Below, in pieces: positions 19,477 to 36,914 of a stretch of 64,000 bases of DNA. The position numbers and the translations under genes are program-made. Location of the stretch: assembly GCA_019750255.1 (NCBI GenBank), contig JAIEOU010000003.1, forward strand, positions 19,350 to 83,349. The letters are read 5' to 3'. The notes below the pieces were generated by a model that saw only the letters and a program-made list of their open reading frames with translations, was not told the DNA's origin and searched no databases. This stretch comes from Patescibacteria group bacterium. GTDB taxonomy: Bacteria; Patescibacteriota; Minisyncoccia; Phycocordibacterales; UBA918. Within the stretch, counting starts at the first letter, position 1. Each line of letters opens with the position of its first letter.

Positions 19477-19483
19477 TATTAAT

Positions 19484-20284
19484 ATGAATGACCGCTTTGT
19501 TCATAAAAAATCGCTAGGACAACACTTTCTTAATAGTCCGGTAATTCCTAGAAAGCTGTGCGACGCAGCCGACCTCATTCCGGGGGAAACGGTTGTAGAA
19601 ATTGGCCCTGGTACCGGTGCGCTCACCGCAGTATTGCTTGAGCGCGGGGTAAAGGTCATCGCTATCGAAACCGACGAAAGGGCTATTCTGCACCTCGAGG
19701 AACGCTTCGCGACAGAAATAATGGCTAAAATGCTAGTCATATCGGCACAAGACGCTCGCGAACTTGATCTCACTCAGTTAGGTCTTCACAATCAGGAGTA
19801 TAAAGTGGTAGCGAATATCCCTTACTACCTCTCGGGGTTTCTCTTTCGGACGTTCTTAGAAAACACGCTTCAGCCCTCAACTCTGGTTTTTTTGGTACAG
19901 AAAGAGGTGGCGGAGCGCATTGCTCGCGCTAAAAAAGCCTCGCTCCTATCTCTGTCGGTAGCCGTGTTTGGTAACCCTACATATATATGTACTGTAAAGC
20001 GGGGCAACTTCACCCCGGCTCCCAAAGTGGACTCGGCTATTATCGCCGTCCGTGACATTTCACGGGAACGCCTTATGGATATCGACCCTCGCCACTTTTT
20101 TTACTTACTTCACTTAGGCTTCGGGCAAAAACGTAAACAATTGCTTGGCAACCTAACCGCGGCCTATGAACGAACCACCCTCGAGCGTATTTTCAACGAG
20201 CAGAAATTGAATCTCAACATAAGGGCAGAGGACTTGTCTGTACCGCAGTGGGTTACTCTAGTCCACGCCTTACCACCACAATAA
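19484..20284 (+). CDS. rsmA: 16S rRNA (adenine1518/1519-N6)-dimethyltransferase
   Basis: MNDRFVHKKSLGQHFL... with the SAM-binding motif VVEIGPGTGALT, typical of KsgA. Confidence 0.85.
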   Translation: MNDRFVHKKSLGQHFLNSPVIPRKLCDAADLIPGETVVEIGPGTGALTAVLLERGVKVIAIETDERAILHLEERFATEIMAKMLVISAQDARELDLTQLGLHNQEYKVVANIPYYLSGFLFRTFLENTLQPSTLVFLVQKEVAERIARAKKASLLSLSVAVFGNPTYICTVKRGNFTPAPKVDSAIIAVRDISRERLMDIDPRHFFYLLHLGFGQKRKQLLGNLTAAYERTTLERIFNEQKLNLNIRAEDLSVPQWVTLVHALPPQ

Positions 20285-20397
20285 GCACCTCTTTATCCTC
20301 AGTTATTGCCCTATGTACACTAAGTTCTCCCCAGCTTAATCACATCTTGTTCGGTGTTCGTACACGGGAAGGGCTTCGACACTGCTATACTTTACGT

Positions 20398-21294
20398 ATG
20401 TTAGGTGGCATTAATCCCCGAGTGCTCGGATCGAGCTTTATTGGCTTAGCGCTCGTGTGTGGTGCTTGGGTTCTCAATTCCTTGCGGACGGCTCCCACCA
20501 CACCCCCCGAAGCCGCGGTGTACCTCGTTCAGGAAAATGCTCCAGTTCGGAACGCTCTTTCAACAGAAGACCAGAACACTGACGGCATCGAGGACTGGAA
20601 GGAGCCGTTCCTGACTGCTGCGCCAGTTATCTTAAACACCAGTTCCAGCTCAAATGAGCGAACAGGCACCCTCACCGAACAGGTAGGGATTAACCTCATG
20701 GAAAGCATGCTGATGGCGGAGAGCTTTGGTGCGGCCGGTGCGTCAAATGAGCAGCTCATCAAAAATTCGACCGAGCAGGCTTTTCTTGCAAATCGGGACC
20801 GCATCTATACCAGTAGCGACATCACGGTACTAACAAACCCTGAATTAGCGTCCATCCGCGACTACGCGAATGCGGTTGCTTTGATTCTCTCTACGAATGA
20901 TGTAAAGGGCTCAAAAAACGAGCTGCTTCTTTTTGACGAAGCGGTGCGCACTGGTAACCAGCAACTATTTGCTCAGATTACCCGCAAGGCAGACATGTAT
21001 AAGATCTATCGTGACGAGCTCCTCAAACTGCCCGTTCCACTAACCTTAACCCAGGAACACTTACGTCTTATTAATGTTTTTAATGTCATGGAGGCCAATA
21101 TCAGATCTATGACTGAACTTGACACCGACCCGCTAAAGACGCTCGTCCGACTGGAAAACTACCAAGATGACACCACCGAACTCGGTTTGGCATTGAATTA
21201 TTTTTATACTGGAATTTCTAAATTCCCTGACCTCTTCTCACCAAACGATCCAGCTCTTGCCTTTACCACCTTTGGTCAGTTGCAACAACAATAA
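20398..21294 (+). CDS. Hypothetical N-terminally membrane-anchored protein, first gene of the T4SS-like operon
   Basis: Internal Met followed by TM helix SSFIGLALVCGAWVL. An extended -10 tgctatact lies 6 nt upstream (leaderless). Confidence 0.4.
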   Translation: MLGGINPRVLGSSFIGLALVCGAWVLNSLRTAPTTPPEAAVYLVQENAPVRNALSTEDQNTDGIEDWKEPFLTAAPVILNTSSSSNERTGTLTEQVGINLMESMLMAESFGAAGASNEQLIKNSTEQAFLANRDRIYTSSDITVLTNPELASIRDYANAVALILSTNDVKGSKNELLLFDEAVRTGNQQLFAQITRKADMYKIYRDELLKLPVPLTLTQEHLRLINVFNVMEANIRSMTELDTDPLKTLVRLENYQDDTTELGLALNYFYTGISKFPDLFSPNDPALAFTTFGQLQQQ

Positions 21295-21304
21295 GTAATG
21301 TTCT

Positions 21305-23035
21305 ATGAAAACTCTTAACTTTCACTATTTCAATAAGCTCGTCTTTGGTTTTGTCTTCGTCCTGTTTGCGTTTACTACGGTATATATTCCACAGGACCAC
21401 ACACCGAGAGCGGAGGCACAAAACGTTGACCCCGCAGCGGTAGTCCAGCGAGAACGAGGGTGGTTCCAGTCACTCCTCGACTCTGTAAGCTTGACCGGAA
21501 CCTTTAAATCGGGCCTTGCTTCACTTGGTATTAACACCGCACAGTGGAGCGTGACGAGCATATTAAACGGTCTGGCCTGGGCCGCAGCCAAAAACATCCT
21601 TTCGATGATTCAGCGCGATATTGTGCGCTGGATTAATTCTGGTTTCCAAGGGAGTCCCGCGTTTATCCAAGATCTGGGAGGGTTTATCACCAACATAGCC
21701 GACGAAACGGCGGGGCAGTTGATTCAAGAAATCGGCGGGCCCTTATCGTTCGTATGTTCGCCGTTTCAGTTAGACGTACGAATTGCTGTTGCCTCCGCCT
21801 ATAACCGTACCCGCGATAAGAATGCTCGGCGATGTACCCTCACCGGCGCTCTGCAGAATATTCAAAACTTTATCGGCGGCGATATGAATCAAGGTGGCTG
21901 GGATTCATGGATTAGAATTGTGCACCAACCACAGTCTTACACTCCGCTCGGCTCTGCCCTCGATGCGAGCGCAGAGCTTGGTATCCGAATTCGTACCGCT
22001 CAAGGTCGCGAGGTAAACCTGCTTAACTGGGGCGGGGGATTCATGTCGAGCAAGGTTTGCGAAACAGTACCAGGCCCAAGTGGTGACGAGGAAAAATGCC
22101 GTGTTTCAACACCAGGTAATGTTATTGCCAACCAACTCAACCGGAGTTTAGGTCTTGGCGACGAATCGCTCATAGCCGCCGATCAGATTAACGAAATCAT
22201 TGGCGCTCTGATGCAACAGATGGTGAAGCAAGTACTAACCGGGGCAGGGGGGCTCCTCGGTGCGGGCGGTGGACAAGGCAGTAACTCCAAGTACACTGAT
22301 CCTAATTTCAACGTTGACCTCTTTACCGCAAAGACAGAGATTCAGGCAAATAGTAACGAGGGTCGGAAACTAATGATTGAAGCCTTTGCTGCTGAAAGTG
22401 AATTCTTAGATTTAGCGCAGAGCTTTATCGTTCGATACCAAAATGAGTACTCTGCTGATGGTGCGGTACAGGCAAGAGCAGCCGCCGCTTACAATGAGGC
22501 TCGTGAAGTCTTACCAAAGATACAAGACAATCTCACAAAGCTGCAAGCTATCCTTGCCAACTTTGACAGCGCGCCGAATTCTCAGGTGCAACAACAAGTT
22601 CTCCAGGACTTCACCGCCCAGTTTGCTTCGTTTAGCAACCAAATTCAGGTTGACGCAGCGCGCGAGCGGTGGATATCCGCCTTTATTGGCATGGGACCTC
22701 GACCAACGCCAGTAGCAGACAGCGTACTCGATAGTGCGGGTGAGGCGCTTTCAATCGAGGAGCTGTATCTGGATCTCGTTAATTCGGCTATTGACCAATA
22801 CGAAACACTGACAAACCCCAGTCCCGCAGAAAAGGTGGCGTACAATGAGGCTTTCGCTATCCTACCTGACATTCAACGTAACGTAATTGATCTACGAGAC
22901 ATCATTGACGCTCTTAAGGCCGGCGACAATGATGCCGAGGCGGACTTTACAGCCATTAAGCCTGACCTCCACACTGAAGTGGAGGTGACAAAAGCCCGCG
23001 TTGACTGGGAAGCGGCGCTCGGTACTTTACCGTAA
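21305..23035 (+). CDS. Hypothetical secreted protein (signal peptide; Gln/Ala-rich C-terminal half)
   Basis: Signal peptide MKTLNFHYFNKLVFGFVFVLFAFTTVYIP. 576 aa. Confidence 0.45.
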   Translation: MKTLNFHYFNKLVFGFVFVLFAFTTVYIPQDHTPRAEAQNVDPAAVVQRERGWFQSLLDSVSLTGTFKSGLASLGINTAQWSVTSILNGLAWAAAKNILSMIQRDIVRWINSGFQGSPAFIQDLGGFITNIADETAGQLIQEIGGPLSFVCSPFQLDVRIAVASAYNRTRDKNARRCTLTGALQNIQNFIGGDMNQGGWDSWIRIVHQPQSYTPLGSALDASAELGIRIRTAQGREVNLLNWGGGFMSSKVCETVPGPSGDEEKCRVSTPGNVIANQLNRSLGLGDESLIAADQINEIIGALMQQMVKQVLTGAGGLLGAGGGQGSNSKYTDPNFNVDLFTAKTEIQANSNEGRKLMIEAFAAESEFLDLAQSFIVRYQNEYSADGAVQARAAAAYNEAREVLPKIQDNLTKLQAILANFDSAPNSQVQQQVLQDFTAQFASFSNQIQVDAARERWISAFIGMGPRPTPVADSVLDSAGEALSIEELYLDLVNSAIDQYETLTNPSPAEKVAYNEAFAILPDIQRNVIDLRDIIDALKAGDNDAEADFTAIKPDLHTEVEVTKARVDWEAALGTLP

Positions 23036-23053
23036 CAGCCGCACATCTCTTAC

Positions 23054-25273
23054 ATGACACGCCTGCGCCAGCTCAATTTTCTCTACTGCCTATCACTCTG
23101 TCTTGTAGTGCTGGTTTTGGTACTGCCAACCCTCGTGTCGGCTCAGCAGGGTGGTGCTCCTGTTACCGCCTCAGAACAAAACACGCTTATGATGCGGGTG
23201 CTCTGGTGGATAGTCGCATCCGTCTTTGGCGGCCTTACCTGGGCTACTGGTTTACTCCTCGACTATAGTATTAGGGAGCTGGTAATTAATTTCGGTAGCC
23301 TCTACCAAACCTCAGGTTTAGGAGTAGCAGTAAACAACCTCTGGGGAGTGGTGCGCGATCTATTCAACCTCACGTTTATCTTCGGGCTCATTTATATTGG
23401 GTTCCGCATGATTATCAATAGCGATGACAGCGGGGCCAAGAAGGCGATCGTTAACCTGATTATCGCGGCACTGCTCGTTAACTTCAGTCTGTTTATCACG
23501 AAAACCGTCATCGATTTTTCCAATATTGCAGCGGTCCAGATCACCCAAGTAATATACCGGGGCGGAACCGCCACCAACCAATCCATCAGTGTAGCGTTTG
23601 GTGTCCAGATGGGACTCTCGAGTCTCTGGGGACAGACCCAAGAGCAAGCAAATACAGCACGTCTACAAACAGGGGGAGATCTGCCAGGACAAGGGGGGCT
23701 GCTCTATATATTTGGGGCGATGATCCTCTTTTTGATTGCAGCATTTTGTTTTGCGGCGGGAGCAATACTCCTCTTTGTCCGCTTTATTGCCCTGAATATC
23801 ATGATGATTCTTTCTCCCATCATGTTCCTTGGCCGAGTGTTTGAACCACTGCAGACCTATTCCTCTGCCTATTGGAAGAAGTTCCTGAGCTACTGCTTTT
23901 TTGCCCCAGCGTTTCTTTTAATGCTGTATTTCTCTCTCTATATCCTCGGTCAATTCACTGGCTCTATCCGCAATTCAAGTGGCCTCGCGGCCGAGCTTGG
24001 TCCAGGCGCCACTGGAGTTAACGCAATTGCAGCACTGCTGATGTCAGGCGGGTTCCTGATCGCCTCAGTGCTGGTCGCGCAAAAGATGAGTGGGGCAGCC
24101 GGAAGCATGACGGTTAAGGTGGGAAACAACCTGCGCGAGCGGGGACAGCGTATGATTGGTGCCTCAACGTTTGGAGCTGGCGCCTACGTCGGCCAAAGGA
24201 CTCTCGGTCGCGCCAGTGCCCGACTGTCTGACTCAGATACCATGAAGAACTGGGCATCGAGAAACCCAACAATGGGTAGAGCTGCGCTCAAGGTTACAAG
24301 TGCAGTAGGGGATGCATCATTTGATGGACGCGCCGCTCTCGCGGCAGCAGGTGTTAAAGGTCTTGGTAGTGCAACCAAGGGAGGCTATGAAACGCGCATG
24401 AAGGAAGCCGCTAAATCTGATAGGGAGTTTGCTGATACTCTCGGTGAGCAAAAGCTTGCTGACGCGGCGACACAAGCCGGAAGAACAGAACGAGCTTCAC
24501 AAATTGCTCCGGCAATAGCCACGATTAAGGCCGACTCAACAACCGAAGGTACCGCTGGCTACGAACTTAAGCAGACAGAGACTAAGCAGGCGAATGCACG
24601 AACAGTCACCTTAGCGGCTAATAATGAATTGTCTTCGATACAGCAAAACAGTAGAGCAGCCCAAGAGCCAGAACTCCAGAAGATTGCACTCTACCAAGAA
24701 CAGTTAGCCGCTGCGACAGACCCGACAGTGATAGCGAGCCTTAAGGATAAAATTAAAGCCAGCACCGACAAAGCTAAGGAGATTGAAGGAAATTTTGATA
24801 CTGCCACTAAAGCAGCGCAACAGAAAGTTACTGCTGCCCAGGCAGCCGAAAAAGGTATCGAGGCTCAGATTAAGTCAATCAATGACAAAATTGCCAAACA
24901 AGCGGAAGCGCGGTTTACCTATGCTCGCCAACTTACACTCATTGAGAGCCGAAAAAAGAGTCGCGATCGCTACACCGTAAAACTTCCTCGTGCCGTTAGT
25001 GGTGGAGCGGGCGCGGCCGGAGCGGCAGCCGCAGGGGCAGGTTTGTACGCAGCTGGGACTGCCGGGGCAGGGGCACTGGCTCTTGGTAGTGTCGTAAATT
25101 CGTATGGTGAAAGCTATGGCGCTCAAGTGGAAGCGTTAGAAAAAACCTACGGCAAAGACGGGACTAAGAAAATAAAAGCTTCGGAGCAAAAGAATAAAAT
25201 GAAAGAGCTCGGTGAAGTTTTGAAAGAAGAAGGGGTGATACCTAAAGAAAAGAAAGCTGATAAGGATGATTAA
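23054..25273 (+). CDS. VirB6/TrbL-like polytopic membrane protein with long C-terminal coiled-coil/Ala-rich tail
   Basis: Signal peptide followed by at least 6 TM helices, then a hydrophilic region of about 350 aa (KAKEIEGNFDTATKAAQQKV...). This architecture is typical of monoderm T4SS VirB6 homologs. Confidence 0.5.
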   Translation: MTRLRQLNFLYCLSLCLVVLVLVLPTLVSAQQGGAPVTASEQNTLMMRVLWWIVASVFGGLTWATGLLLDYSIRELVINFGSLYQTSGLGVAVNNLWGVVRDLFNLTFIFGLIYIGFRMIINSDDSGAKKAIVNLIIAALLVNFSLFITKTVIDFSNIAAVQITQVIYRGGTATNQSISVAFGVQMGLSSLWGQTQEQANTARLQTGGDLPGQGGLLYIFGAMILFLIAAFCFAAGAILLFVRFIALNIMMILSPIMFLGRVFEPLQTYSSAYWKKFLSYCFFAPAFLLMLYFSLYILGQFTGSIRNSSGLAAELGPGATGVNAIAALLMSGGFLIASVLVAQKMSGAAGSMTVKVGNNLRERGQRMIGASTFGAGAYVGQRTLGRASARLSDSDTMKNWASRNPTMGRAALKVTSAVGDASFDGRAALAAAGVKGLGSATKGGYETRMKEAAKSDREFADTLGEQKLADAATQAGRTERASQIAPAIATIKADSTTEGTAGYELKQTETKQANARTVTLAANNELSSIQQNSRAAQEPELQKIALYQEQLAAATDPTVIASLKDKIKASTDKAKEIEGNFDTATKAAQQKVTAAQAAEKGIEAQIKSINDKIAKQAEARFTYARQLTLIESRKKSRDRYTVKLPRAVSGGAGAAGAAAAGAGLYAAGTAGAGALALGSVVNSYGESYGAQVEALEKTYGKDGTKKIKASEQKNKMKELGEVLKEEGVIPKEKKADKDD

Positions 25274-25282
25274 TATTCACCT

Positions 25283-25816
25283 ATGAACCCAACTATTGCT
25301 GACGAACGCCTCTATCAAATCACCGACCCTGCCTATCGCGACTACATTTTAAGTGGCGACACGACTGACCTGGCTATTATTCTTGGCTCGACCCATAACT
25401 TAGACGAGCAGGCAGTGGGAGTACTTGAGAATGCGATTGATCTTTATCTTTTATGGCTCCTCGACGCCACCGGCCTGGCGACATTTATTAGTCGTCAATG
25501 CGACCTCTCATTAGATGATGCCGCGGTACTGGTTGCCGCTATAGACCTTGCCCTACCTGAAGACGTTCTCCAAGCACACGCACACCCAGAGGCGATGTTA
25601 CAGGCAGCTCCGTCACCAACTATTGCCACCGAAATTGCCGCCACCGAAGCCGCACTTGCGCACATCTCAACCGTGCGCACGATGGCGCGCGACATGGAGG
25701 ACCTAAAGAGCCAAGCACCGCAGGATAATGCTATCTATAAATCATCTCAAGATACCATTCGGCCCGACAGCACACAGGCCGACACCTCTCGGTGGGGTAG
25801 TGGTGCTCAAAAGTAA
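25283..25816 (+). CDS. Hypothetical acidic protein
   Basis: ORF in the operon with no recognisable motif. Confidence 0.35.
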   Translation: MNPTIADERLYQITDPAYRDYILSGDTTDLAIILGSTHNLDEQAVGVLENAIDLYLLWLLDATGLATFISRQCDLSLDDAAVLVAAIDLALPEDVLQAHAHPEAMLQAAPSPTIATEIAATEAALAHISTVRTMARDMEDLKSQAPQDNAIYKSSQDTIRPDSTQADTSRWGSGAQK

Positions 25817-25886
25817 CGAACACATGGGGATACCGGGAGCCGCTTCGTCATATAACGGAGCGGCTCCATGTATAATGAACTAATCT

Positions 25887-26309
25887 ATGCGTTTTGAGGT
25901 TCCTCAGTTTATCGAGATCGAAGACCGCATCATAGGTCCTTTTAGTTGGCGTCAGTTTTTGTATTTAGGCGGCGGTCTGGGCATGGGAGTAGTGCTCTTT
26001 TTAACGACGCCCTTTATCGTTTTTCTTCTCATCGGCCTTCCTCTCGCCGTTCTGGCGCTGGCACTGGCTTTTTATCCAATAAATAATCGACCTTTTTCTT
26101 TCTTCTTGGAGGCGATGTTTAACTACTTCTACAACCATCGTCTCTATCTGTGGCGCCGCAAAGAGCAGGTAATCTATAAAAAGGAACCGGCCCCAAGCAC
26201 CGTGGTCGATGATCTTACCACCACAAGTACACAGAAGCCCCGACATCAGTCCATTTCCTCCCTGTCTCGCCAACTCGAACTGCAAGCACTCCAAAAAAAA
26301 GATTTATAA
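25887..26309 (+). CDS. PrgI/VirB3-like small 2-TM membrane protein
   Basis: RQFLYLGGGLGMGVVLFLTTPFIVFLLIGLPLAVLALALAF gives two adjacent TM helices. It lies immediately upstream of VirB4, the conserved VirB3/PrgI position. Confidence 0.45.
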   Translation: MRFEVPQFIEIEDRIIGPFSWRQFLYLGGGLGMGVVLFLTTPFIVFLLIGLPLAVLALALAFYPINNRPFSFFLEAMFNYFYNHRLYLWRRKEQVIYKKEPAPSTVVDDLTTTSTQKPRHQSISSLSRQLELQALQKKDL

Positions 26310-26312
26310 CCT

Positions 26313-26948
26313 ATGCCCAAAGCCACTCCAGCCAGCCAAGAATTCGTTAGTATTCGCGACATCCGCGAGGGTGTTGTGATGTTAAAAGGGGGACAGACGT
26401 GCAGCGTTCTACTGGCTTCTTCCATAAATTTTGCCTTAAAGTCACAAGACGAACAGCGTGCAATCTTGCTCCAGTTCCAAAACTTTCTCAACACGTTAGA
26501 TTTTTCAATTCAAATCTATGTACAATCTCGCCGCATGAACATCGAGCCCTACCTAGAGCTCTTACGAACACGAGAGGGGGATCAGGACAATGACCTGATG
26601 CGCGTACAGCTACGGGAATACATGGAGTTCGTCCGTACTTTTACCACCGAAGTCGACGTCATGACCAAAAGCTTCTTTGTTATAGTGCCTTACACACCAG
26701 CGCCACTTAATCTTTCAAAAAACCTGGGGTCATTCTTGGCGCAAGGCAAGTCAGCCCCCGCAACGACAGAGACGCGCTTCGAAGAACAGCGTGTTGCGCT
26801 TGAGCAGCGCATTGCGATTGTGAAGCAAGGACTCGATCGTATCGGCGTTCGCACGATTGCCCTTGGCAATGACGAGCTCGTTGAATTTTATTACCACATA
26901 TACAACCCCGGTGATCCTACCTCAAGCGCGCCCTCAGCCGACGTCTAA
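26313..26948 (+). CDS. VirB4/TrbE/CagE-family ATPase, N-terminal domain (separated from the ATPase domain by an in-frame TAA)
   Basis: IRDIREGVVMLKGGQTCSVLLASSINFALKSQDEQRAILLQFQNFLNTLDFSIQIYVQS matches the CagE_TrbE_VirB N-terminal pattern. It is in the same frame as 26958..28754. Confidence 0.55.
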   Translation: MPKATPASQEFVSIRDIREGVVMLKGGQTCSVLLASSINFALKSQDEQRAILLQFQNFLNTLDFSIQIYVQSRRMNIEPYLELLRTREGDQDNDLMRVQLREYMEFVRTFTTEVDVMTKSFFVIVPYTPAPLNLSKNLGSFLAQGKSAPATTETRFEEQRVALEQRIAIVKQGLDRIGVRTIALGNDELVEFYYHIYNPGDPTSSAPSADV

Positions 26949-26957
26949 TTAATAATT

Positions 26958-28754
26958 ATGGGTATTTTTGATATTTTAAAACCGTCACAGAAGAACGATA
27001 CCGTCACCGATTTGGCAGACCACCTCCTCACCATCACTGATGTGATTGCACCATCGGCGGTACAAATTGGACCTCGTAGCATCAGTATTGGTGGGGTAAA
27101 CGCGCGGGTTTTTTACGCCGTTGCCTACCCACGCTATCTGACCGACGGCTGGCTCCAGCCGGTGACAAACCTCGAGCGAGAACTCGATATATCTATTTTC
27201 ATTCACCCGGTCAACACGGCTGATATGTTGAAGAAGTTCCAGAAGAAAGTAGCCGAGGTACAGAGCCAGATTCACATGAAAGCCGACAAGGGTGAGGTGC
27301 GCGATCCTCAACTCGAAGCCGCCTACCAAAACCTTGAAGATTTGCGCGACAAGCTCCAGCAATCAGAAGAGCGCCTCTTTGATGTAGGCTTCTATATCAG
27401 TGTCTACGGCCAAGATGAAGCCGCGCTCAACAAGGCTGAAAATGAAATTAAAGGCCTTCTTGATTCTCGCCTTATATACATAAAGCCGGGTTACTTCCAG
27501 CAAGAGCCGGGAATGAAGAGTATTGTGCCGGTAGCACAAGACGAACTACTCGTTCATAGTAAATTTAACTCTTCACCGCTCTCTAGTTTTTTCCCGTTCA
27601 CGTCTTTCGATTTAACATCCGATAACGGCATCCTCTATGGCATCAATCGCCACAATTCCTCCTTGGTACTGTTTGACCGCTTTAGCCTTACAAACTACAA
27701 CTCGGTCACCTTTGCCACCTCTGGAGCAGGGAAGTCCTATGCACTGAAGCTGGAAATCTTACGATCGCTGATGTTCGGAACCGAAGTAATTGTGCTCGAC
27801 CCAGAACGCGAGTACGAATACCTGGCCGAAGCCACTGGTGGGCGCTTTTTCAACATCTCCCTTTCGTCTGACCACCACATCAATCCCTTTGACCTACCCG
27901 CCCCGCAAGAAGACGAAAACCCCCAAGACATCTTACGCAGTCACGTGGTTGAACTCATTGGTCTCTTTCGGTTGATGTTGGGCGGTCTCGCTCCTGAAGA
28001 AGAAACCATTATTGACCTCGCCATCCATGAAACCTACGCGCTTAAAGATATCTCTGGTGACACTGATTTTTCAAACCAAGAACCCCCACTTCTCTCTGAC
28101 TTTGAAATGGTACTTGCTGGCATGGACGGCAGCGCTTCCTTGATTACCCGCCTACAGAAGTACACATCGGGTACTTGGTCAGGCTTCATGAACAAAGCTA
28201 CCAATGTTGATATCAACCAGAAGTTTGTGGTGTTTTCACTACGTGATATGGAGGATGAACTCAAAACCATCGCGATGTACATTGTGACCAACTTCATTTG
28301 GAGTGCCGTTCGTCGCCGCCTGACCAAGCGCCTCCTTGTTATCGACGAGGCTTGGTGGATGATGAAGTCAGAAGATACGGCTTCATTCCTCTTTAGTCTA
28401 GCCAAACGAGGTCGTAAGTACTATTTGGGAATCGCGACAATTACCCAGGATGTCGATGACTTTCTTCGCTCTCCGTACGGAGTACCGATGATTACGAACT
28501 CTTCTATTCAGCTGCTCATGAAGCAATCACCAACAGCCATTGACAACATTCAGCGCACCTTCAATCTTACTGATGAAGAAAAGTTCTTACTTTTGGAGTC
28601 GGGGGTAGGGGAGGGAATATTCTTTGCCGGACTCAAGCACGTAGCCATAAAAATTATCGCCTCCTACACAGAAGATCAAATCATCACGTCTGACCCATCA
28701 CAATTACTACAAATTAAGCGTGCCCGTGCCGAGCTTCGTGCTGCTCGACCGTAG
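26958..28754 (+). CDS. VirB4/TrbE/CagE-family T4SS ATPase, C-terminal ATPase domain
   Basis: Walker A TFATSGAGKSYALK and Walker B LLVIDEAWWMM. C-terminal ITQDVDDF and other VirB4 motifs. 598 aa. Confidence 0.8.
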   Translation: MGIFDILKPSQKNDTVTDLADHLLTITDVIAPSAVQIGPRSISIGGVNARVFYAVAYPRYLTDGWLQPVTNLERELDISIFIHPVNTADMLKKFQKKVAEVQSQIHMKADKGEVRDPQLEAAYQNLEDLRDKLQQSEERLFDVGFYISVYGQDEAALNKAENEIKGLLDSRLIYIKPGYFQQEPGMKSIVPVAQDELLVHSKFNSSPLSSFFPFTSFDLTSDNGILYGINRHNSSLVLFDRFSLTNYNSVTFATSGAGKSYALKLEILRSLMFGTEVIVLDPEREYEYLAEATGGRFFNISLSSDHHINPFDLPAPQEDENPQDILRSHVVELIGLFRLMLGGLAPEEETIIDLAIHETYALKDISGDTDFSNQEPPLLSDFEMVLAGMDGSASLITRLQKYTSGTWSGFMNKATNVDINQKFVVFSLRDMEDELKTIAMYIVTNFIWSAVRRRLTKRLLVIDEAWWMMKSEDTASFLFSLAKRGRKYYLGIATITQDVDDFLRSPYGVPMITNSSIQLLMKQSPTAIDNIQRTFNLTDEEKFLLLESGVGEGIFFAGLKHVAIKIIASYTEDQIITSDPSQLLQIKRARAELRAARP

Positions 28755-28768
28755 TACAATAAGCGAAC

Positions 28769-29518
28769 ATGGCTGATCGCCGCCTGCAAGCCTCCCTAGA
28801 CCGCGCCCGCACTGGTCGACAGACCACAGACGAGCTTTTTAATGATGAATATGCTCGATCTGGTCTACAACCAACCAATGTGGTCGTCGATCGTAGATCG
28901 CCCCGCGCTCCTAATCGAACAGAGTCAGAAAAGTTAGACGAGGAGAAGGCTCTACAGGAGATGGCGGCGTTCGAACGAGCAGAGAAGACTCAACAATTGC
29001 GCCAACGATTTACTCAGCAGCCAACACAAACCAACGTCGGCCAGGCAGAGGAGGCAATCGACACCGCCGTAGCGTTACGTAGCCGAAGTGTTTTTGTATG
29101 GATGATGGGTTGGCACTGGTGGCAGTGGACCACCCTTCAATTATCAATCGGACTACTTTCGATTATGTTTCTCGGATTAGCGTACGGTCTTGAGAGTAGC
29201 TGGCTCGGAAGGGTCGTGGGTCGAGTGGCTGGTGCAGTTAATGCTGTCACTTCGTTTGTCGGGTTTGATTTTTCCCTGTTTAGCCCCGAAAATATGTTCT
29301 GGGTGCTCTATATATTCCTTCTGGGCATGATGTGGCTCAGTCTGTTCGCTACAGTAGTTACTTATATGTGTGTCCAGCATCGAGCCTTATCGGGGAAGAG
29401 AACTGGTCTAAAGTATGGCACGGTAGCCCTCGCGCTTATCGGGTACGCAGTACCAATTGCTAACTTATTTCCCTGGGTTGTGTTCTATATTTTGGTCATG
29501 ACTCGCTACCCACGGTAG
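28769..29518 (+). CDS. Hypothetical membrane protein (basic cytoplasmic N-terminus, about 4 TM)
   Basis: Hydrophobic helices from about aa 110 onward. Lies in the operon. Confidence 0.4.
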   Translation: MADRRLQASLDRARTGRQTTDELFNDEYARSGLQPTNVVVDRRSPRAPNRTESEKLDEEKALQEMAAFERAEKTQQLRQRFTQQPTQTNVGQAEEAIDTAVALRSRSVFVWMMGWHWWQWTTLQLSIGLLSIMFLGLAYGLESSWLGRVVGRVAGAVNAVTSFVGFDFSLFSPENMFWVLYIFLLGMMWLSLFATVVTYMCVQHRALSGKRTGLKYGTVALALIGYAVPIANLFPWVVFYILVMTRYPR

Positions 29519-29583
29519 CTGCCTCTGGTATTCGCAGCCCTCTGCCGTGTTCAAAAATAACATTTCTGAGCGGTCGTACTGGT

Positions 29584-30552
29584 ATGATTGATGGTATGAA
29601 GATTGTTGCTTTGGTTTTATTTTTCTTAAGTTTTTTCACCGCCCCGGTGGCATATGCTCAAGTTTCTGCAACCCCTTTCCTTAACCAGCTACAAATTGTT
29701 ACCGACCCACTATATCCCTCTCCACAGAGTGAGATAGGGGTAAATCTCAATGACTACGGATTAGCTGGCGCCGGCGGGACTATTGAATGGGTGGTCGACG
29801 GGGTTCGTCGTAGTGATTTGCACAATAAAAGATCTTTTACGATAACAACTGGCGCTACAGGCGTGCCGATGGTACTTGAAGCCATGATTACCCCCGCAAA
29901 CGGACCGCGCATGACCGCTCGCAACACTATTTCTCCGACCTATCTTGATCTAATTATCGAAGCCCAGACTCGTGTGCCGGGTTTTTATCTCGGTCGGGCT
30001 CTCCCTAGTATCGGTAGCGCCGTTAATGTGACCGCCCTCATAAATGGTACAGCTGTTTCACCGCGCGATTTACTATTTAGATGGCAAATGAACGAAACCG
30101 CCCTCCTCGGTGGACCTGTACAAGGACAGAACCAAGTTACCTTTACCATGCCACAAGGGGGAGCTACTCTAGGAGTCGTAGTAGAGAGGGTAGGTGGTGG
30201 TGTGATTGCGAGCAAAAATATATTTCTCCAGAATGCAGAACAGACGGTTCGTTTTTATGAGGTAAATAGTCTCTACGGGATGGCTAAGCGGTCGGCAGAG
30301 CGCCTATCTCTCATTGGTAACAGCACTACCGTAAGGGCGGAGCCGTTTCATCTCGATATCCGTACCTACAACAACCCCGACATCGCCACCTGGTCAAGCT
30401 CCGCAATTACTCTTTCTCAAGGCACAAACCCATATGAAGCGACCATCGTCCGGCAAGCTGGTTTAACTGGAGTTGGGGCGGTCGGTTTCCATGTACGCAA
30501 CGAAAATCAAATCCTACAAGGTAGCCAAGCAAGCCTCCAGGTGAGCTACTAA
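29584..30552 (+). CDS. Hypothetical secreted protein
   Basis: Signal peptide MIDGMKIVALVLFFLSFFTAPVAYAQ. Confidence 0.4.
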   Translation: MIDGMKIVALVLFFLSFFTAPVAYAQVSATPFLNQLQIVTDPLYPSPQSEIGVNLNDYGLAGAGGTIEWVVDGVRRSDLHNKRSFTITTGATGVPMVLEAMITPANGPRMTARNTISPTYLDLIIEAQTRVPGFYLGRALPSIGSAVNVTALINGTAVSPRDLLFRWQMNETALLGGPVQGQNQVTFTMPQGGATLGVVVERVGGGVIASKNIFLQNAEQTVRFYEVNSLYGMAKRSAERLSLIGNSTTVRAEPFHLDIRTYNNPDIATWSSSAITLSQGTNPYEATIVRQAGLTGVGAVGFHVRNENQILQGSQASLQVSY

Positions 30553-30556
30553 ACTT

Positions 30557-31753
30557 ATGAAAAAAACTTTTATTATCGCTGGCGCTGTCATTCTCGTACT
30601 CATGCTCGCGGGACTATGGATCTACATGATGTTTTTTGGTACACCACGGACGGTTGAGGAAGTTCTTCCCGACTTCGCGCTCTGGGGGGAGGATGGGATG
30701 CCGGTACAAATACCGGTGATAGCCCCCACCACTACCGCTCCTCTACCGATGGTAAATGTCAATGAAAAAGCTTTACGCCAACTGACGACACGGCCAGTGG
30801 CCGGCTACCGCGAAGTACTGAAGAGCGCTTCGTCCACTCCCGAGCTCTACTACGCTGAGGTGGGTACCGGTCACATCTACAGCATCAACCTCGAGACCGG
30901 TGCCGAGGTGCGCGTATCTGGCACCACCATTCCTGAGGCGGTACGCGCGGATTTTAGCAGTGACGGACGACATGTTGTGATTGCTTCTGGGTTTAGCCAG
31001 GGACACACCGCCACTATCGGGGAATTAGACGCAAGCACGGGAGCGCTTACTGAAGTACCGTTTACCGACACCTTAGGGGACTTCAGGATTACTGAGGGCG
31101 GGGACTTACTGTACACTCACCCCTCTAACACCCTGACAGGTAAAACATTCTCTCTTTCTAACCGAACCACCCGTACACTATTTACTCTACCGTTCCGTGA
31201 CGCCACCATATCTTGGGGCGAACGCGTTACCGACACCCATTTTGTTTACCCTCGTCCCACGATGGAACTAGAAGGGTTTGGCTATGCCATAAACAATGGC
31301 GGACTGACACGCCTGCCATTGTCTGGTTTTGGTTTTTCACTGTTCGGCAATGAGAGCTTGGTTGGTGCGAACTTTCTTGATAAGAACGATTTCGTATCTG
31401 TGTTCTATAACCGCTCGACCCGGAACCTTATTTCATCACCGGTCCGTCTCCTGCCAGAAAAGTGCACATTTGGAACTAAAAATAAAACCATAGTATGGTG
31501 TGGTGCTAGTTTACAAGCCACCGGCTTCGGCTTCCCTGACACCTGGTATACCGGGGAAGTGGGCTTCAGTGATGACATTTATGAAATTTCGCTTACATCG
31601 ACATCTAGTTCGCTGACACTAATTACAGATACTTTAATTGAAACCGGACGTGAAGTAGATATTGTTGACCTTCGCGTAAATCCGACTGAAACGCAACTGT
31701 ACTTTATTAACAAAAACGATTCATCACTCTGGGCCTATGATCTCTCGCGCTAG
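30557..31753 (+). CDS. Hypothetical bitopic membrane protein with beta-rich extracytoplasmic domain
   Basis: N-terminal TM helix IIAGAVILVLMLAGLWIYMMFF, followed by repeated beta-strand-like segments. Confidence 0.4.
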   Translation: MKKTFIIAGAVILVLMLAGLWIYMMFFGTPRTVEEVLPDFALWGEDGMPVQIPVIAPTTTAPLPMVNVNEKALRQLTTRPVAGYREVLKSASSTPELYYAEVGTGHIYSINLETGAEVRVSGTTIPEAVRADFSSDGRHVVIASGFSQGHTATIGELDASTGALTEVPFTDTLGDFRITEGGDLLYTHPSNTLTGKTFSLSNRTTRTLFTLPFRDATISWGERVTDTHFVYPRPTMELEGFGYAINNGGLTRLPLSGFGFSLFGNESLVGANFLDKNDFVSVFYNRSTRNLISSPVRLLPEKCTFGTKNKTIVWCGASLQATGFGFPDTWYTGEVGFSDDIYEISLTSTSSSLTLITDTLIETGREVDIVDLRVNPTETQLYFINKNDSSLWAYDLSR

Positions 31754-32486
31754 TTTCTTCTTAATTCCTTCTGCGCTTTTTATTGTCTTGTTGGTGACTC
31801 CTTTTTTGGGACTTGCTCAGTCCTTGACGTATCAGCCACTAGTGGGGATTCCCGGCATTAACAACACGGCCACTGACTTTAATCTTTATATAAATCAACT
31901 CTACTTCCTATCTATCAGCCTAGCCGCGCTTTTAGCGGTAATTAAAATTATTATTGGCGGAGTAAAGTGGATGCTATCCGACGGCCCTTCGGGTAAGTCT
32001 GGCGCAAAGGATGATATTCGTAGCGCTCTCCTTGGATTACTCCTCATTGTGTCGGCTGTTCTTATCCTTGGAACGATTAACCCCCAACTGCGTGACCTCA
32101 ACGTACTTGGTGGGGCACCAGCACTAAATCCGCTACCAAGCGCTGGGTCGCGATCAGTAGCCAATCCTACAAATCAGGCAGTTACTACTGAGCAGCAGAA
32201 TCTTTCTCAGAGTCCTGATAATCAGCAAGCGGTGGAGCAGGCCCTTGGTGTTAATCGCAATCAAGTTCAAACCGGAACCGATCGGGCTGGCTCTAACACT
32301 TTTTCTTACATAGTCGCAGATGCACCTCGAGAGGTAAAGAATGGTTTCATAAATGCCTGCATGAATGTGACGCAGGGCGGTGTAGGTACGACCAACACCA
32401 TCCGCACCGAATCGTTTAACGGGTTACAAATAATGTCTTGCTATCGCCAGGGCCCAAACAATACCCAATATCGAATCCAACTATAG
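31737..32486 (+). CDS. Pilin-like (VirB2/TrbC-like) protein with Gln-rich C-terminal extension
   Basis: Signal peptide, then two hydrophobic helices separated by a short loop (LYFLSISLAALLAVIKIIIGGVKW...ALLGLLLIVSAVLILGTI). Overlaps the upstream gene by 17 nt. Confidence 0.35.
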   Translation: MISRASFFLIPSALFIVLLVTPFLGLAQSLTYQPLVGIPGINNTATDFNLYINQLYFLSISLAALLAVIKIIIGGVKWMLSDGPSGKSGAKDDIRSALLGLLLIVSAVLILGTINPQLRDLNVLGGAPALNPLPSAGSRSVANPTNQAVTTEQQNLSQSPDNQQAVEQALGVNRNQVQTGTDRAGSNTFSYIVADAPREVKNGFINACMNVTQGGVGTTNTIRTESFNGLQIMSCYRQGPNNTQYRIQL

Positions 32487-32541
32487 CGTCTGCCAGCAGG
32501 TCTCTTCTACTCCTCTTTTTTCCTTTCTCAAACTTAAAGTG

Positions 32542-33270
32542 CTACCGGTGTTTCTTTACAACCAGCTCTTGGAGGACTGCCACCACGTTACTGACTACAA
32601 AGTAGAGAGCAATGGCGGCTGAGGTGGTGTAGCCCACGAAGAATATGAGCGGGGGGAGAATATACTTCATCTGCACCTGCATCATGCGCGCAATATCGTC
32701 CTTCATATCGGGGGTTTGACCAGGTTCTAGCGGGGGGAGGGGAGGCATAGCAAGTTTGACTTGAAAATACTGCGTTATGCCGGCCATAAGCGCGAGGATG
32801 AAACTGGCTTTTGTAATGTCTAAAATTCCGAGGAAATTCATGTTTACGATGTCTGGCACCGGAATAAATCCGTAAAGAAGAGCCGTATTGATCGTAGGCA
32901 GAGCCACACCGCCGCCACTATAAACTGAAAAGTAGAGTGCAATGAGAATTGGAATCTGGAGTAACATCACTGCGATGCCAGCAAACGGGTTCAGGCCAGC
33001 GTCTTTGTAGATAGCCATCATTGCCCGGGCCTGCTCTTCACGTTTATCTTTATACTCTTCTTTAAGCGCGTTGAGCTTTGGGGTAATCTCCCGCATGATG
33101 CGTTGAGTTTTAACCGCCTTTATAGAAAGTGGTAAAAGAATCGTCTTTACCACAATCACAAGCGCAATAATAGCCAAACCCACGTCACCACGGGGAAGAA
33201 TGTCAATAAATAAAACCAGTCCGTTATAGACCGGGTCAAAGAAAATCGTGTGCCAAATATAACTAAACAT
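32542..33270 (-). CDS. yidC: Membrane protein insertase YidC (short monoderm form)
   Basis: 242 aa with about 5 TM helices and a conserved YidC/Oxa1 core. Lies in the rpmH-rnpA-yidC arrangement. Confidence 0.85.
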   Translation of the reverse strand: MFSYIWHTIFFDPVYNGLVLFIDILPRGDVGLAIIALVIVVKTILLPLSIKAVKTQRIMREITPKLNALKEEYKDKREEQARAMMAIYKDAGLNPFAGIAVMLLQIPILIALYFSVYSGGGVALPTINTALLYGFIPVPDIVNMNFLGILDITKASFILALMAGITQYFQVKLAMPPLPPLEPGQTPDMKDDIARMMQVQMKYILPPLIFFVGYTTSAAIALYFVVSNVVAVLQELVVKKHR

Positions 33271-33284
33271 AAATATCGCCTATT

Positions 33285-33617
33285 CTACCGCTCTTTCAGG
33301 TAGCGTGAAAGGACCACATCGACGCTCGCATGCTGTTCAAGACGGGGAATACGCGCGAGTGGGGGCTTGGCTACCAAAATAACGACCCCTACGAGCCCCC
33401 GCTCCTTACCGAGACGCTCAAGGGCGGCGTAGAGTCGGCGCCGAATAGTGTTGCGTTCATGGGCTTTTTTGGCCACCTTTTTACTTACCACCACCGCACC
33501 CCGCAACCGGGCATGGGGAGTATACACAGCAGTCAACACGTCCGAGTGTTGTCGAGAGCCGCTTTTGAAATACTCGGAAAATTCAGGCCGGGAAAGGCGG
33601 TCTTGTTTAGACAACAT
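33285..33617 (-). CDS. rnpA: Ribonuclease P protein component
   Basis: 110 aa basic protein (SKKVAKKAHERNTIRRRL). Located between rpmH and yidC. Confidence 0.8.
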   Translation of the reverse strand: MLSKQDRLSRPEFSEYFKSGSRQHSDVLTAVYTPHARLRGAVVVSKKVAKKAHERNTIRRRLYAALERLGKERGLVGVVILVAKPPLARIPRLEQHASVDVVLSRYLKER

Positions 33618-33737
33618 AGGTCGAGGTCAGTATACAAGGATATATAATGAATACATAGTGCGAATGTATTTTCTTTGTATATCTGGTCGTAGCCGCAGGC
33701 TACAAAAAAGGCCCCTAAGGGCCCTTTTTGTTCTTCA

Positions 33738-33899
33738 TTATAACTTCGACTTCACCTTAGACTTCACGGTAAGCTGAGCGCGACCCTTGCGGCGACGGGC
33801 CTTAATGACCTTACTGCCGGCAGTGGTAGCACTACGCACGAGAAAACCGTGGGTGGTGGCGCGCTTTTGCTTCTTTGGTTGATAGGTTCGCTTTGACAT
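33738..33899 (-). CDS. rpmH: 50S ribosomal protein L34
   Basis: Manual translation of the minus strand gives [53 protein letters not shown]. This gene is absent from the ORF track, which reports a wrong-frame ORF 33764..33958. Confidence 0.8.
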
Positions 33900-34139
33900 A
33901 CTAGGCTGTGATTAGGTCGCACCACTATACATGAATATAAGAATAATTCAAATACCACCTATGTGGCCGCCCCGAAAGCGCGGTGGTGGGGGAGGTGACG
34001 TTTTCTGTTATACACAACTTATACACAGTTGCGAATTAATACAAAAAAACAGAGTCGCCGCATTTTATAAAATAACAATAAGTTTACAGTTACCCTCGGG
34101 AGCGTATAATGCTCTGTACTTGCCTTTACTTGTGCGTCT
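33900..34139. promoter_or_regulatory. Candidate oriC segment and dnaA promoter region
   Basis: Two tandem TTATACACA sequences at about 33996-34018 (1 mismatch to the DnaA box TTATCCACA) and a TATAAT box at about 34108. Bounded by rpmH and dnaA. Confidence 0.4.
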
Positions 34140-35525
34140 ATGAATCCACTTTCACATCCTTCACCAACCAACAGTATTGTTCGCACTGAACATATTGATG
34201 TGAAGAAATTGTGGGATGACGCCCTCGTCAAAATTGAACTGTCGATTACACCCGCAAATTTTAAAACCTGGTTTCGGGATACCCACATTGTCACGATCGA
34301 AGACAGCACCGTTACCCTCGGTGTTCCGAGCGTGTTTGTACGCGACTGGTTGTCGGATAAATTCCAGTCAATGATCCTCAAAACACTCCGAGACCTTTCA
34401 CCTTTTGTGCGGAGTGTAGAGTATGCCGTCGTTCAGCGTAGCGAACGCAAAAACGAAGGTTCAAAAACCCAAACCGTTAATGCCGCCCTCCCACTTGAGG
34501 ATTACTACATAAACAAAAGCGACAATTTAAACCCCCGGTACTCATTTGATACCTTTGTCGTTGGGCCATACAACGCTCTGGCACATGCTGCGGCAAAAAC
34601 CGTGGCCGACCGGCCTGGTATCGCCTATAATCCACTCTTCATATATGGTAAGACTGGTCACGGTAAGACTCATCTCATCCAAGCGGTGGGGAACCATATC
34701 AAAAAGACCGGAAAGAAAGTATTTTATGTGACAAGTGAACGCTTTGCGGTTGATTACTTTAACTCTCTTCAAAGCGGTTCCGCCAATAGCTTTAAGGATA
34801 AATACCGTCAATATGACGTTCTTATCATGGACGATGTGCAGTTCTTAGCAACTAAGGAAAAGACTCAGGAGGAGCTCTTCCATCTTTTTAACACCCTCCA
34901 CGACACCAATAAGCAAATTGTCTTCTCGAGCGATCAGCACCCAGCCCTACTCTCCGGTCTAGAAGAGCGGCTTAAGTCACGCTTTGTGCAGGGAATGATT
35001 GTTGATATTCCCACACCCGACCCGGAGTCACGCGTGGCTATTTTGCGCGCCAAGGCTGCTCAGAACAGCATTACTCTGTCTGATGACGTAGTTGAACACC
35101 TTGCTCACACTATTGAAGGCAATATTCGCGAACTTGAAGGGGCCTTAAATACGATTATGTGTCAGTCACAGCTCCTGGGGCGCATGGTATCGCTCGACGA
35201 GGTGAAGGCCATCATCAAGAACAATTCACGCCCACGCAAAACCCTAGCTATCACTGATGTGGTTGATAAAGTAGCTCGTTACTTTGATATTGATCAGGCC
35301 AGCATCTACGAAAAAACGCGTCGAAAGGAGGTGGTTCGGCCGCGCCAAATTATTATGTACATTTTGCGTGAAGATTTTCAGGTGTCATATCCCGCAATTG
35401 GGAAGAAACTAGGCGGTCGCGACCACACGACGGTAATCCACTCTTGCGAGAAGATAAAGGGGGAACTAAAAGAGAACCCTGACCTCGAAGAGGAAATATC
35501 CCAGATTCGATTACTTTTAAAATAA
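34140..35525 (+). CDS. dnaA: Chromosomal replication initiator protein DnaA
   Basis: AAA+ Walker A GKTGHGKTHL, DnaA box-binding C-terminal domain. 461 aa. Confidence 0.95.
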   Translation: MNPLSHPSPTNSIVRTEHIDVKKLWDDALVKIELSITPANFKTWFRDTHIVTIEDSTVTLGVPSVFVRDWLSDKFQSMILKTLRDLSPFVRSVEYAVVQRSERKNEGSKTQTVNAALPLEDYYINKSDNLNPRYSFDTFVVGPYNALAHAAAKTVADRPGIAYNPLFIYGKTGHGKTHLIQAVGNHIKKTGKKVFYVTSERFAVDYFNSLQSGSANSFKDKYRQYDVLIMDDVQFLATKEKTQEELFHLFNTLHDTNKQIVFSSDQHPALLSGLEERLKSRFVQGMIVDIPTPDPESRVAILRAKAAQNSITLSDDVVEHLAHTIEGNIRELEGALNTIMCQSQLLGRMVSLDEVKAIIKNNSRPRKTLAITDVVDKVARYFDIDQASIYEKTRRKEVVRPRQIIMYILREDFQVSYPAIGKKLGGRDHTTVIHSCEKIKGELKENPDLEEEISQIRLLLK

Positions 35526-35819
35526 CGCTTCCTTCTGGTAGCGTTATTTTATACCCAAACCCTGGGGATAAACGCCACATAAATCCTTTAATAGCTCTGT
35601 AGAAGTCTCCTAATTACTCAAAAAAATGCCTCTCTTCTGCCTTAGTTTTCCCCAGACGATAGCCAACAAAATATTTCTCCCCAGACACAAAAACACAATC
35701 ACCAGCTCCACCAACACTATACACAAGAATGCTCACTCATTTGCGCCTTAAAGTACAACATATAATCGAGATATGCACACTTCCACAGCCCTAATAATAG
35801 AGAGTAAAATACTTTTAAA
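35526..35819. promoter_or_regulatory. AT-rich dnaA-dnaN intergenic region with DnaA-box-like motifs (candidate DUE/oriC part)
   Basis: ctggggataaac and ctatacacaag approximate DnaA boxes. The region is low-GC. Confidence 0.3.
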
Positions 35820-36914
35820 ATGAAAATAACTACTCCTTATCCCACTCTTGTTCAAGCGCTCGATATCATTAGTCGGATTAGCACCAAACATGTTACGTTG
35901 CCGGTACTTCAGTGTGTCCTTATAAGTGTAGTTGATAAAAAGATTACCCTCAGAGCTACTAATCTTGAGATTAGTGTTGAGCTTACCCTTGATGGCGTGG
36001 TCGAAGACGATGGGATAATTGCCGTGCCGGCCCAGACACTACAGCAGAGTGTCCAGTTTTTAAATGAAAAGGATGTCACCTTGCGAGTGGAGGAAGGTGT
36101 GCTTGTTATTGAAGGGGCGCACACGCAGACCTCAATTAAATCAATTCCCCATGATGAGTTTCCAAATATCCATAAAATCGACACTGCGGGGGTAGTAGTG
36201 AATGCTGAAATGTTTGCGTATGGAATTAAAACCGTAGCGTTTGCGGCTTCACAGACCTCAATTAAACCAGAGCTCGGAAGTGTGTTTGTTCAACAGAAGC
36301 GCGAACATTCTCTTACGTTCGTTGCGACTGATTCATTTCGATTGATGGAAAAATCAGTTCCTCAAAAAGGGGTGGTACTGGCTCAGTCGTTCTTGTTGCC
36401 GCAGAAGAACGCTCTTGAGTTAGCACGTGTATGCGAAATTGTTGGTGGTACACCAACGTTAATCATTAACGAAAACCAGTGTAGTCTCGTTTTTGCTTCT
36501 GGGGTGTATATAAGCTCGCGTTTGGTTACTGGATCGTTTCCTGATTATGAACAAATCATACCGAAAGAATATGTGACCACCGTGACTATTCTTAAAGAAG
36601 ATCTGCAACGCGCGTTTAAGAAAACTAATATATTTCTTAATAAGTTTTTGCAGGTAGCTATTACACTTACTGAGAGACACCTCACGGTTTCAGCTACTAA
36701 CAGCGAGGTGGGTCACACTACCGATACGCTAAAGGCTCAGGTGGAGGGGCAAGAACTTAATCTTAGTTTCAATCAGCAGTACGTCATTGACCCGCTCTCC
36801 CATATTCAAGATGAGAGTCTGATTCTAAAGTTTGCTGGTATCGGTCGGCCACTCGTACTCCATGGCGTTACTGATCCAAGTTTGCGTTATCTAGTAATGC
36901 CGATGAATAAATAA
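35820..36914 (+). CDS. dnaN: DNA polymerase III beta sliding clamp
   Basis: 364 aa with three-domain beta-clamp pattern, immediately downstream of dnaA. Confidence 0.9.
   Translation: MKITTPYPTLVQALDIISRISTKHVTLPVLQCVLISVVDKKITLRATNLEISVELTLDGVVEDDGIIAVPAQTLQQSVQFLNEKDVTLRVEEGVLVIEGAHTQTSIKSIPHDEFPNIHKIDTAGVVVNAEMFAYGIKTVAFAASQTSIKPELGSVFVQQKREHSLTFVATDSFRLMEKSVPQKGVVLAQSFLLPQKNALELARVCEIVGGTPTLIINENQCSLVFASGVYISSRLVTGSFPDYEQIIPKEYVTTVTILKEDLQRAFKKTNIFLNKFLQVAITLTERHLTVSATNSEVGHTTDTLKAQVEGQELNLSFNQQYVIDPLSHIQDESLILKFAGIGRPLVLHGVTDPSLRYLVMPMNK

Follow-up and report, generated by a model that had tools for sequence, protein, structure and literature searches.

Is the gene for the VirB4 ATPase broken in this genome, or does the locus hold two genes? 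The DNA in question (hereafter the window) is a stretch of 64,000 nucleotides (nt) from a Patescibacteria group bacterium (assembly GCA_019750255.1, contig JAIEOU010000003.1, positions 19,350 to 83,349), in which two open reading frames (ORFs) of the forward strand, both related to VirB4, the ATPase of type IV secretion systems, lie end to end with a stop codon between them. The upstream ORF (26313..26948), here called the N piece, encodes 211 amino acids (aa) and ends with TAA at 26946-26948; the downstream ORF (26958..28754), the C piece, opens with ATG at 26958 and encodes 598 aa. Both start coordinates are divisible by three, so that the ORFs share one frame, and the 9 nt between them (26949..26957; TTA ATA ATT, TTAATAATT) contain no Shine-Dalgarno motif. 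A preliminary description of the locus, whose coordinates, lengths and frame all match the window sequence, read the junction TAA TTA ATA ATT ATG as a VirB4 split by a single in-frame TAA, and offered as explanations a recent nonsense mutation, a natural two-polypeptide VirB4, a sequencing error or stop-codon read-through. The stop and the common frame are real, but that framing is misleading, as relatives carry the two as separate genes in all frames. We conclude that these are very probably two intact, co-transcribed genes of a chromosomal type IV secretion cluster of the Paceibacteria/Parcubacteria type, that the TAA serves as an ordinary stop codon, and that the common frame is coincidental; of the four explanations it is the natural two-polypeptide VirB4 that stands.

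A scan restricted to one genome per species found a C-piece relative at 67–85% identity in 80 Patescibacteria loci, 79 of which have sufficient upstream DNA; the junction counts given here are over 80 loci, the window plus 79 related ones. Across these 80 loci identity reaches down to 43% for the N piece and 67% for the C piece. The window and each of the 79 related loci encode the N part on an ORF of its own, whose end precedes the ATPase start; the length of this ORF in the related loci is 206–272 aa, and at most 232 aa in 78 of the 79. The comparison of orthologous loci that the preliminary description had recommended thus finds the split in every related locus with upstream DNA. A sense codon at the split position, which would have marked the window's TAA as an artefact, was looked for in the same loci, and the relatives carry a stop too. 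The start of the ATPase gene lies in frame 0 relative to the N gene in 22 loci, in frame +1 in 35 and in frame +2 in 23. Because these counts do not differ significantly from uniform (chi-square about 3.9, 2 degrees of freedom), the common frame in the window is attributed to chance. The N genes end with TAA in 61 loci, TAG in 16 and TGA in three, and the TAA at 26946..26948 (+) is taken to be a genuine stop of the same kind. The spacer varies from 1 to 497 nt with a median of about 5 nt, being 1 nt (TAAtATG) in 14 loci and 45–497 nt in 13.

Database homologues show the same arrangement. At an expectation value (E) of ≤1e-3 there are 3,598 homologues of the N piece, and the 120 listed are all 207–213 aa long; for the C piece, the best 120 homologues measure 595–602 aa. 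Among representatives of clusters at 50% identity, 2,025 match the N piece, and of the best 150 of these 149 are stand-alone proteins (112–443 aa) and one is fused to the ATPase.

Rates of nonsynonymous and synonymous substitution (dN/dS, by the Nei–Gojobori method) were compared for both genes, but dS is about 0.9 or more in all pairs but one and exceeds 1.1 in 14 of 21, so that only the least diverged pair is reliable. In that pair (L034 and L041, dS about 0.4) dN/dS is 0.05 for both genes, which indicates that both are under purifying selection. Identity to the window in the related locus L001 is 69% for the TrsD-like protein, as the N piece is called below, and 85% for the ATPase. Taken together, these comparisons show a two-gene state that is conserved and, as judged from codon substitutions, under purifying selection across the clade.

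What are the two products? The C piece exceeds the cut-off of the NCBIfam model NF045971 (conju_CD1110, VirB4-like, CD1110 family), with 362.1 bits against 325 (E 5.9e-108), and covers positions 167–733 of its 752; matches to the proteobacterial models TIGR00929 and F-type TraC are significant but under their cut-offs. The Pfam families found in it are P-loop_TraG, AAA_10 and DUF87. Residues 5–389 of 4AG5, the crystal structure of a VirB4 C-terminal domain, align with C-piece residues 219–578 (E 1.2e-40), and residues 446–741 of TrwK, the VirB4 of plasmid R388, align with residues 248–552. As the preliminary description had noted, both nucleotide-binding motifs are on this piece: Walker A, SGAGKS, is at residues 255–260 (27720..27737, +), and Walker B, LLVIDEAW, at residues 459–466 (28332..28355, +). 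Both fall within the RecA-like C-terminal domain. In the two alignments A2 and A3, G256, G258, K259 and S260 of the former and D463, E464, A465 and W466 of the latter are invariant, as is the start methionine of the piece. The polypeptide does not contain a complete N-terminal domain, because it starts at CD1110 position 167 and positions 2–168 are encoded on the separate 211-aa ORF. Thus the C piece is, by profile, structure and length of homologues and by the plasmid alignment given below, a VirB4-family ATPase minus the first part of the N-terminal domain, that is, minus the first ~170–190 canonical residues.

The N piece supplies the part that the ATPase lacks. In the NCBIfam scan it aligns to positions 11–101 of 752 of NF045971, to positions 128–244 of 894 of the mycoplasma VirB4 model and, weakly, to the 201-position TrsD/TraD model NF041427; both pieces are thus VirB4-related. 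All 50 of the N-piece homologues tested match the CD1110, mycoplasma VirB4 and TrsD models (best E 7.5e-13, 1.8e-7 and 2e-8, respectively), and 24 of the 50 also match TIGR00929 (VirB4_CagE). Individual homologues cover positions 4–177 of 792 in TIGR00929, 2–168 of 752 in CD1110, 12–200 of 201 in TrsD and 100–277 in VirB4_plasma. The cut-off of NF041427 is 200 bits, and the window protein scores 17.9; nine stand-alone homologues shown individually score 23.0–32.6, and three of these nine cover the model over nearly its full length. This pattern shows the N piece to be a remote homologue of TrsD/TraD outside NCBI's subfamily NF041427. An AlphaFold2 (AF2) model of the N piece has a mean pLDDT of 77.8, and a fold search of the PDB with it gave 14 matches at E 6e-5 to 2e-3, all of them TrwK/VirB4 chains of R388 (TM-score 0.49–0.58, normalised to the query); the next match is unrelated (E 0.24). 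A search of PDB sequences with the N-piece profile found nothing even at E ≤ 10. Precomputed annotation lists the family PF26593 ('TraC-like') for a protein identical to the N piece (P0001), and likewise for each of the 120 listed homologues and the N part of the fused relative. The CagE/TrbE N-domain had been assigned to this piece, but the record of that family (CagE_TrbE_VirB, PF03135) is for P0386, a C-piece homologue. Profile and fold matches therefore place the N piece at the first ~170–190 residues of canonical VirB4, and together with the NCBIfam matches, the PF26593 record, the hhalign comparison reported below and its separate ORF in relatives they characterise 26313..26948 (+) as a TrsD-like protein, the first half of the VirB4 N-terminal domain encoded as a gene of its own.

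The break had been placed between the N-terminal and ATPase domains, and there it does not lie. The N-terminal domain of TrwK comprises residues 15–400 and the C-terminal domain begins at about residue 400 (PMC9259494), and the C piece has ~215 residues before the region aligned to 4AG5, about 200 of which belong to the N-terminal domain. Because these ~200 residues are retained, the break sits in the middle of the N-terminal domain, near VirB4_CagE profile position 180–190, and not at the border of the ATPase domain. The two pieces are collinear with full-length VirB4, since their profile matches abut (CD1110 2–168, then 167–733). The idea that the split separates two internal repeats was also tried, since the N-piece model and C-piece residues 35–177 have a similar order of secondary structure; hhalign gave E 0.37 with a shallow and 0.22 with a diverse profile, so that the sequences lend the idea no support, and it was dropped.

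In single-chain VirB4 proteins, such as TrwK of R388, the CD1110 family and F-type TraC, one polypeptide of ~750–820 aa is collinear with the N and C pieces and shares Walker A and B with the latter; the C piece's C-terminal domain is homologous to 4AG5 and TrwK, and the N-piece model matches TrwK. The window differs in having two polypeptides (211 and 598 aa), with the break near position 170–190.

The staphylococcal conjugative plasmids pGO1 and pSK41 represent a subclass within the monoderm conjugation class MPF_FATA. In pSK41 (NC_005024) the layout is as in the window: a gene for a small protein is followed by trsD (227 aa, 25886-26569), a 14-nt gap and the gene for a 672-aa VirB4-like ATPase. 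Residues 36–617 of that ATPase align with residues 28–566 of the C piece (23% identity, E 6e-34), and because the two ATPases align from near both starts, the break point is equivalent in plasmid and window. Among the pSK41 ORFs, a 162-sequence profile of the N piece finds trsD only (E 6e-7), and hhalign aligns TrsD with this profile end to end over 172 columns (E 3e-5, probability 73%); with a shallow N-piece alignment the match was weak (E 0.011), and it is convincing only with the 162-sequence profile. Identity between the pSK41/pGO1 TrsD and the N piece is very low (~17%). The plasmid differs further in that its annotation includes relaxase and coupling-protein genes, and in that a clear Shine-Dalgarno motif, GAAGGGAG, precedes its ATPase start, while the window start is without one.

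The closest known system is that of the Patescibacteria themselves, and in substance nothing differs between it and the window. Quinonero-Coronel et al. (2025, Microb Genom; PMC12102498) reported that, of the type IV secretion components recovered in Patescibacteria, TrsD is the most abundant, with 2,272 homologues, of which 1,664 were associated with VirB4, and treated it as a separate component remotely homologous to the VirB4 N-terminus. The words 'split', 'truncated' and 'two genes' do not occur in that article. 'TrsD' is not found in the main text of Guglielmini et al. 2014 (PMC4027160), which leaves PMC12102498 as the sole source for the resemblance of TrsD to the VirB4 N-terminus. The window belongs to the same clade and has the same components, namely PrgI/VirB3, a TrsD-like protein, VirB4, VirB6 and a VirB2-like pilin, in the same setting near dnaA, dnaN, yidC and ksgA, with the trsD-like gene directly upstream of virB4. 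Most Patescibacteria clusters are without a relaxase (PMC12102498). The essential cluster SEML1_0006-0019 of Ca. Southlakia epibionticum was described by Wang et al. 2023 (PMC10633639), and the TrsD homologue of strain ML1 of that organism is listed as essential in PMC12102498. The two-gene arrangement is therefore already known, as the normal and published state of the Patescibacteria system.

The C piece is encoded in a type IV secretion cluster with VirB3- and VirB6-like genes. A PrgI/VirB3-like protein is encoded at 25887..26309 (+; PF12666 PrgI, E 2.4e-9, 38 bits against a cut-off of 27), so that the gene order is prgI/virB3-like, trsD-like, virB4. The genes are closely spaced: 3 nt separate the prgI stop from the N gene, and 9 nt the N-gene stop from virB4. 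Upstream of these is a VirB6/TrbL-like polytopic membrane protein (23054..25273, +; PF04610 TrbL, E 1.4e-6, 28.6 bits against 25.9), and the cluster ends with a VirB2-like pilin (31737..32486, +) whose match to PF18895 (T4SS_pilin, E 7.4e-6, 26.4 bits) narrowly misses the cut-off of 26.6, and which also matches NF045849 (E 2.7e-5). Six further ORFs of the cluster (348, 576, 177, 249, 322 and 398 aa; 20248-23035, 25283-25816 and 28769-31753) have no Pfam family, and none of the five scanned against NCBIfam found a match there (20248-21294 being outside that scan); among them are presumably the VirB8-like and cell-wall-hydrolase components that monoderm systems are expected to have. Upstream of the cluster are a uvrD-like helicase gene (17461-19476) and ksgA (19409-20284), and downstream yidC (32542-33270, minus strand), dnaA (34140-35525) and dnaN (35820-36914). 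An origin-proximal chromosomal placement has been described for Patescibacteria type IV secretion clusters (PMC12102498), and the window fits this setting from 17461 to 36914.

The missing Shine-Dalgarno site before the ATG at 26958, pointed out in the preliminary description, is a fact but not one specific to this start. Searching for AGGA, GGAG or GAGG within 20 nt upstream of the 43 long ORFs of the window, we found such a motif before only four, against a background of 11%, and it is absent from all short-spacer junctions in the relatives. Because this rarity runs through the whole window, the absence at 26958 is uninformative; the organism does not appear to rely on Shine-Dalgarno pairing. 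A TATAAT-like box lies 5–12 nt upstream of many start codons in the window, which suggests that leaderless mRNAs may be common in this genome. Examples used in the survey of start signals are the plus-strand starts at 14566, 17518, 20398, 46720 and 57791 and the minus-strand genes 42347-43348, 51526-52797, 52871-53434 and 55445-56308.

Some of the long junction spacers carry a gene of their own. In four loci (L032:2975-3419, L037:5515-6000, L038:5504-6000 and L042:4315-4756) an insert of 442–497 nt lies between the trsD-like gene and virB4, and each insert encodes a complete ORF of 123–133 aa belonging to the family 23S_rRNA_IVP (PF05635, E 2e-19 to 2e-38, with weaker bAvd-like matches). In L037, L038 and L042 the ORF appears, by eye, to lie between inverted repeats. 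The insert looks like a small mobile cassette, and its presence in these four loci shows that the trsD-like gene and virB4 tolerate uncoupling. In nine others (L020, L028, L030, L039, L056, L058, L065, L076 and L080) the spacers of 45–249 nt are without an ORF, and some contain palindromic or repeated motifs, such as cgaaattcgaaacaaatccgaa ... ttcggatttcgtacttcggatttc in L076; these may be leftovers of the cassette or miniature forms of it.

How would two separate polypeptides do the work of one VirB4? In R388 the N-terminal domain of VirB4 is wrapped by VirB3, binds the tails of VirB8 and supplies the interface of the VirB4 dimer (PMC9259494). In the Patescibacteria system, the TrsD-like protein would bind the ATPase non-covalently and so complete the N-terminal domain, and the short spacers would couple the translation of PrgI, the TrsD-like protein and VirB4 without Shine-Dalgarno sites.

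Several observations weigh against this account of two intact genes whose products jointly make up VirB4. Evolution is faster in the N piece than in the C piece, with a median dN/dS of 0.31 against 0.11, although most of the pairs behind these medians are saturated. The scores far under the NF041427 cut-off (17.9–32.6 against 200 bits) mean that the homology to the plasmid TrsD is remote. A local Pfam-A scan of the N piece (26313-26945) found no family even at E ≤ 1, despite the PF26593 record, a mismatch of tools or of library versions. For the C piece, the AF2 model is poor (mean pLDDT 41, from 47 homologues at 82–100% identity). Finally, the 13 loci in which the genes are 45–497 nt apart indicate that translational coupling is not obligatory.

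Some of the same observations favour the alternative that survives best: the TrsD-like protein, although derived from the VirB4 N-terminus, would now be an independent subunit that does a separate job, for instance linking PrgI/VirB3 or a VirB8-like protein to the ATPase as an adaptor, or that occurs at another stoichiometry, instead of simply completing the N-terminal domain. We consider this possible but unlikely. The faster evolution of the TrsD-like protein and the long inserts that uncouple the genes in 13 loci would fit it, as would the 100–230 extra residues of some representatives (295–443 aa), the TrsD homologues of Gracilibacteria, which are not next to virB4 (PMC12102498), and the plasmid TrsD, which has no assigned function. 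Against it, the two pieces are collinear with full-length VirB4 profiles, the genes lie side by side in each of the 79 related loci examined, and a fused relative exists.

That relative, P0142 (797 aa), is encoded at L081:544-2937 in a metagenome-assembled genome (GCA_964615945.1, contig CAZTUR010000004.1), downstream of prgI and near dnaA. Its TrsD-like part is 46% and its ATPase part 55% identical to the pieces, joined by the linker ...NPATIEKRGEVIGRQGMGGVAS..., and the whole aligns to TIGR00929 as a single stretch (positions 18–725). It is known from one contig of one sample, in which a real re-fusion is indistinguishable from an assembly error. This fused form, and the fact that the window spacer is in frame without a second stop (TAA TTA ATA ATT ATG), might be taken to favour programmed read-through or recoding of the TAA, which would yield a fused VirB4 of ~814 aa in addition to, or instead of, the two proteins. 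Such read-through is very improbable: the in-frame arrangement occurs in only 22 of the 80 loci, about as often as expected by chance; several of these in-frame loci have a second in-frame stop (TAA TAA in L002 and L012, for example); the spacers reach 497 nt, with room for other genes; the identity of the stop codon varies; and more of the window's ORFs end ordinarily in TAA than in any other stop (24 of 43).

That a recent nonsense mutation turned a full-length virB4 into a pseudogene and left the secretion system without its ATPase was suggested by the common frame of the two ORFs, with one stop and three sense codons between them, yet hardly any probability remains for it. A stop is present in 80 of 80 loci, in all three relative frames and as all three stop codons; the start methionine of the C piece is invariant in A2 and A3; dN/dS is well below 1 for both genes, with no relaxation of constraint after the break; and the listed homologues of each piece are all stand-alone. 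A sequencing or assembly error that placed a false stop in a single gene is equally negligible even for a metagenome-assembled genome, as the identical 211-aa protein (P0001) is on record from both NCBI and Logan assemblies, relatives at 91% identity from other sources have the same length (the 211-aa P0003 was seen on 15 contigs), and the same two-gene structure occurs in 79 independent assemblies. The conserved split, the stand-alone homologues and the purifying selection thus exclude, for practical purposes, nonsense mutation, assembly error and conserved read-through.

With two intact, co-transcribed genes as the preferred reading, what the analysis adds to the published description is a few small points: the position of the break in the middle of the N-terminal domain, its coincidence with the TrsD/TrsE break point of pSK41, the tolerance of the junction for spacers of up to ~500 nt, able to hold a mobile cassette, and the rare fused form. 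These additions leave current understanding unchanged. That pSK41/pGO1-type plasmids and Patescibacteria share the break point suggests that VirB4 underwent one ancient fission within the N-terminal domain, which the whole Patescibacteria system inherited and which was only rarely reversed, as in P0142; the TrsD-like protein would then serve as a regulated assembly adaptor and not as a passive piece of a domain. We put this forward as a speculation with a low chance of being right; if true, the detachable half-domain could let the cell vary the amount of N-terminal module on each ATPase. In R388, VirB3 is bound only by the central VirB4 subunit of each dimer. For annotation the consequence is one of caution: where a Patescibacteria genome has, in one frame, a "hypothetical protein" of 211 aa next to a "TraC" of 598 aa, the pair is not to be read as a broken virB4, nor the secretion system counted as inactive, and in the one cultivated relative tested the system is reported, in the account of PMC10633639 given by PMC12102498, to be essential for epibiotic growth.

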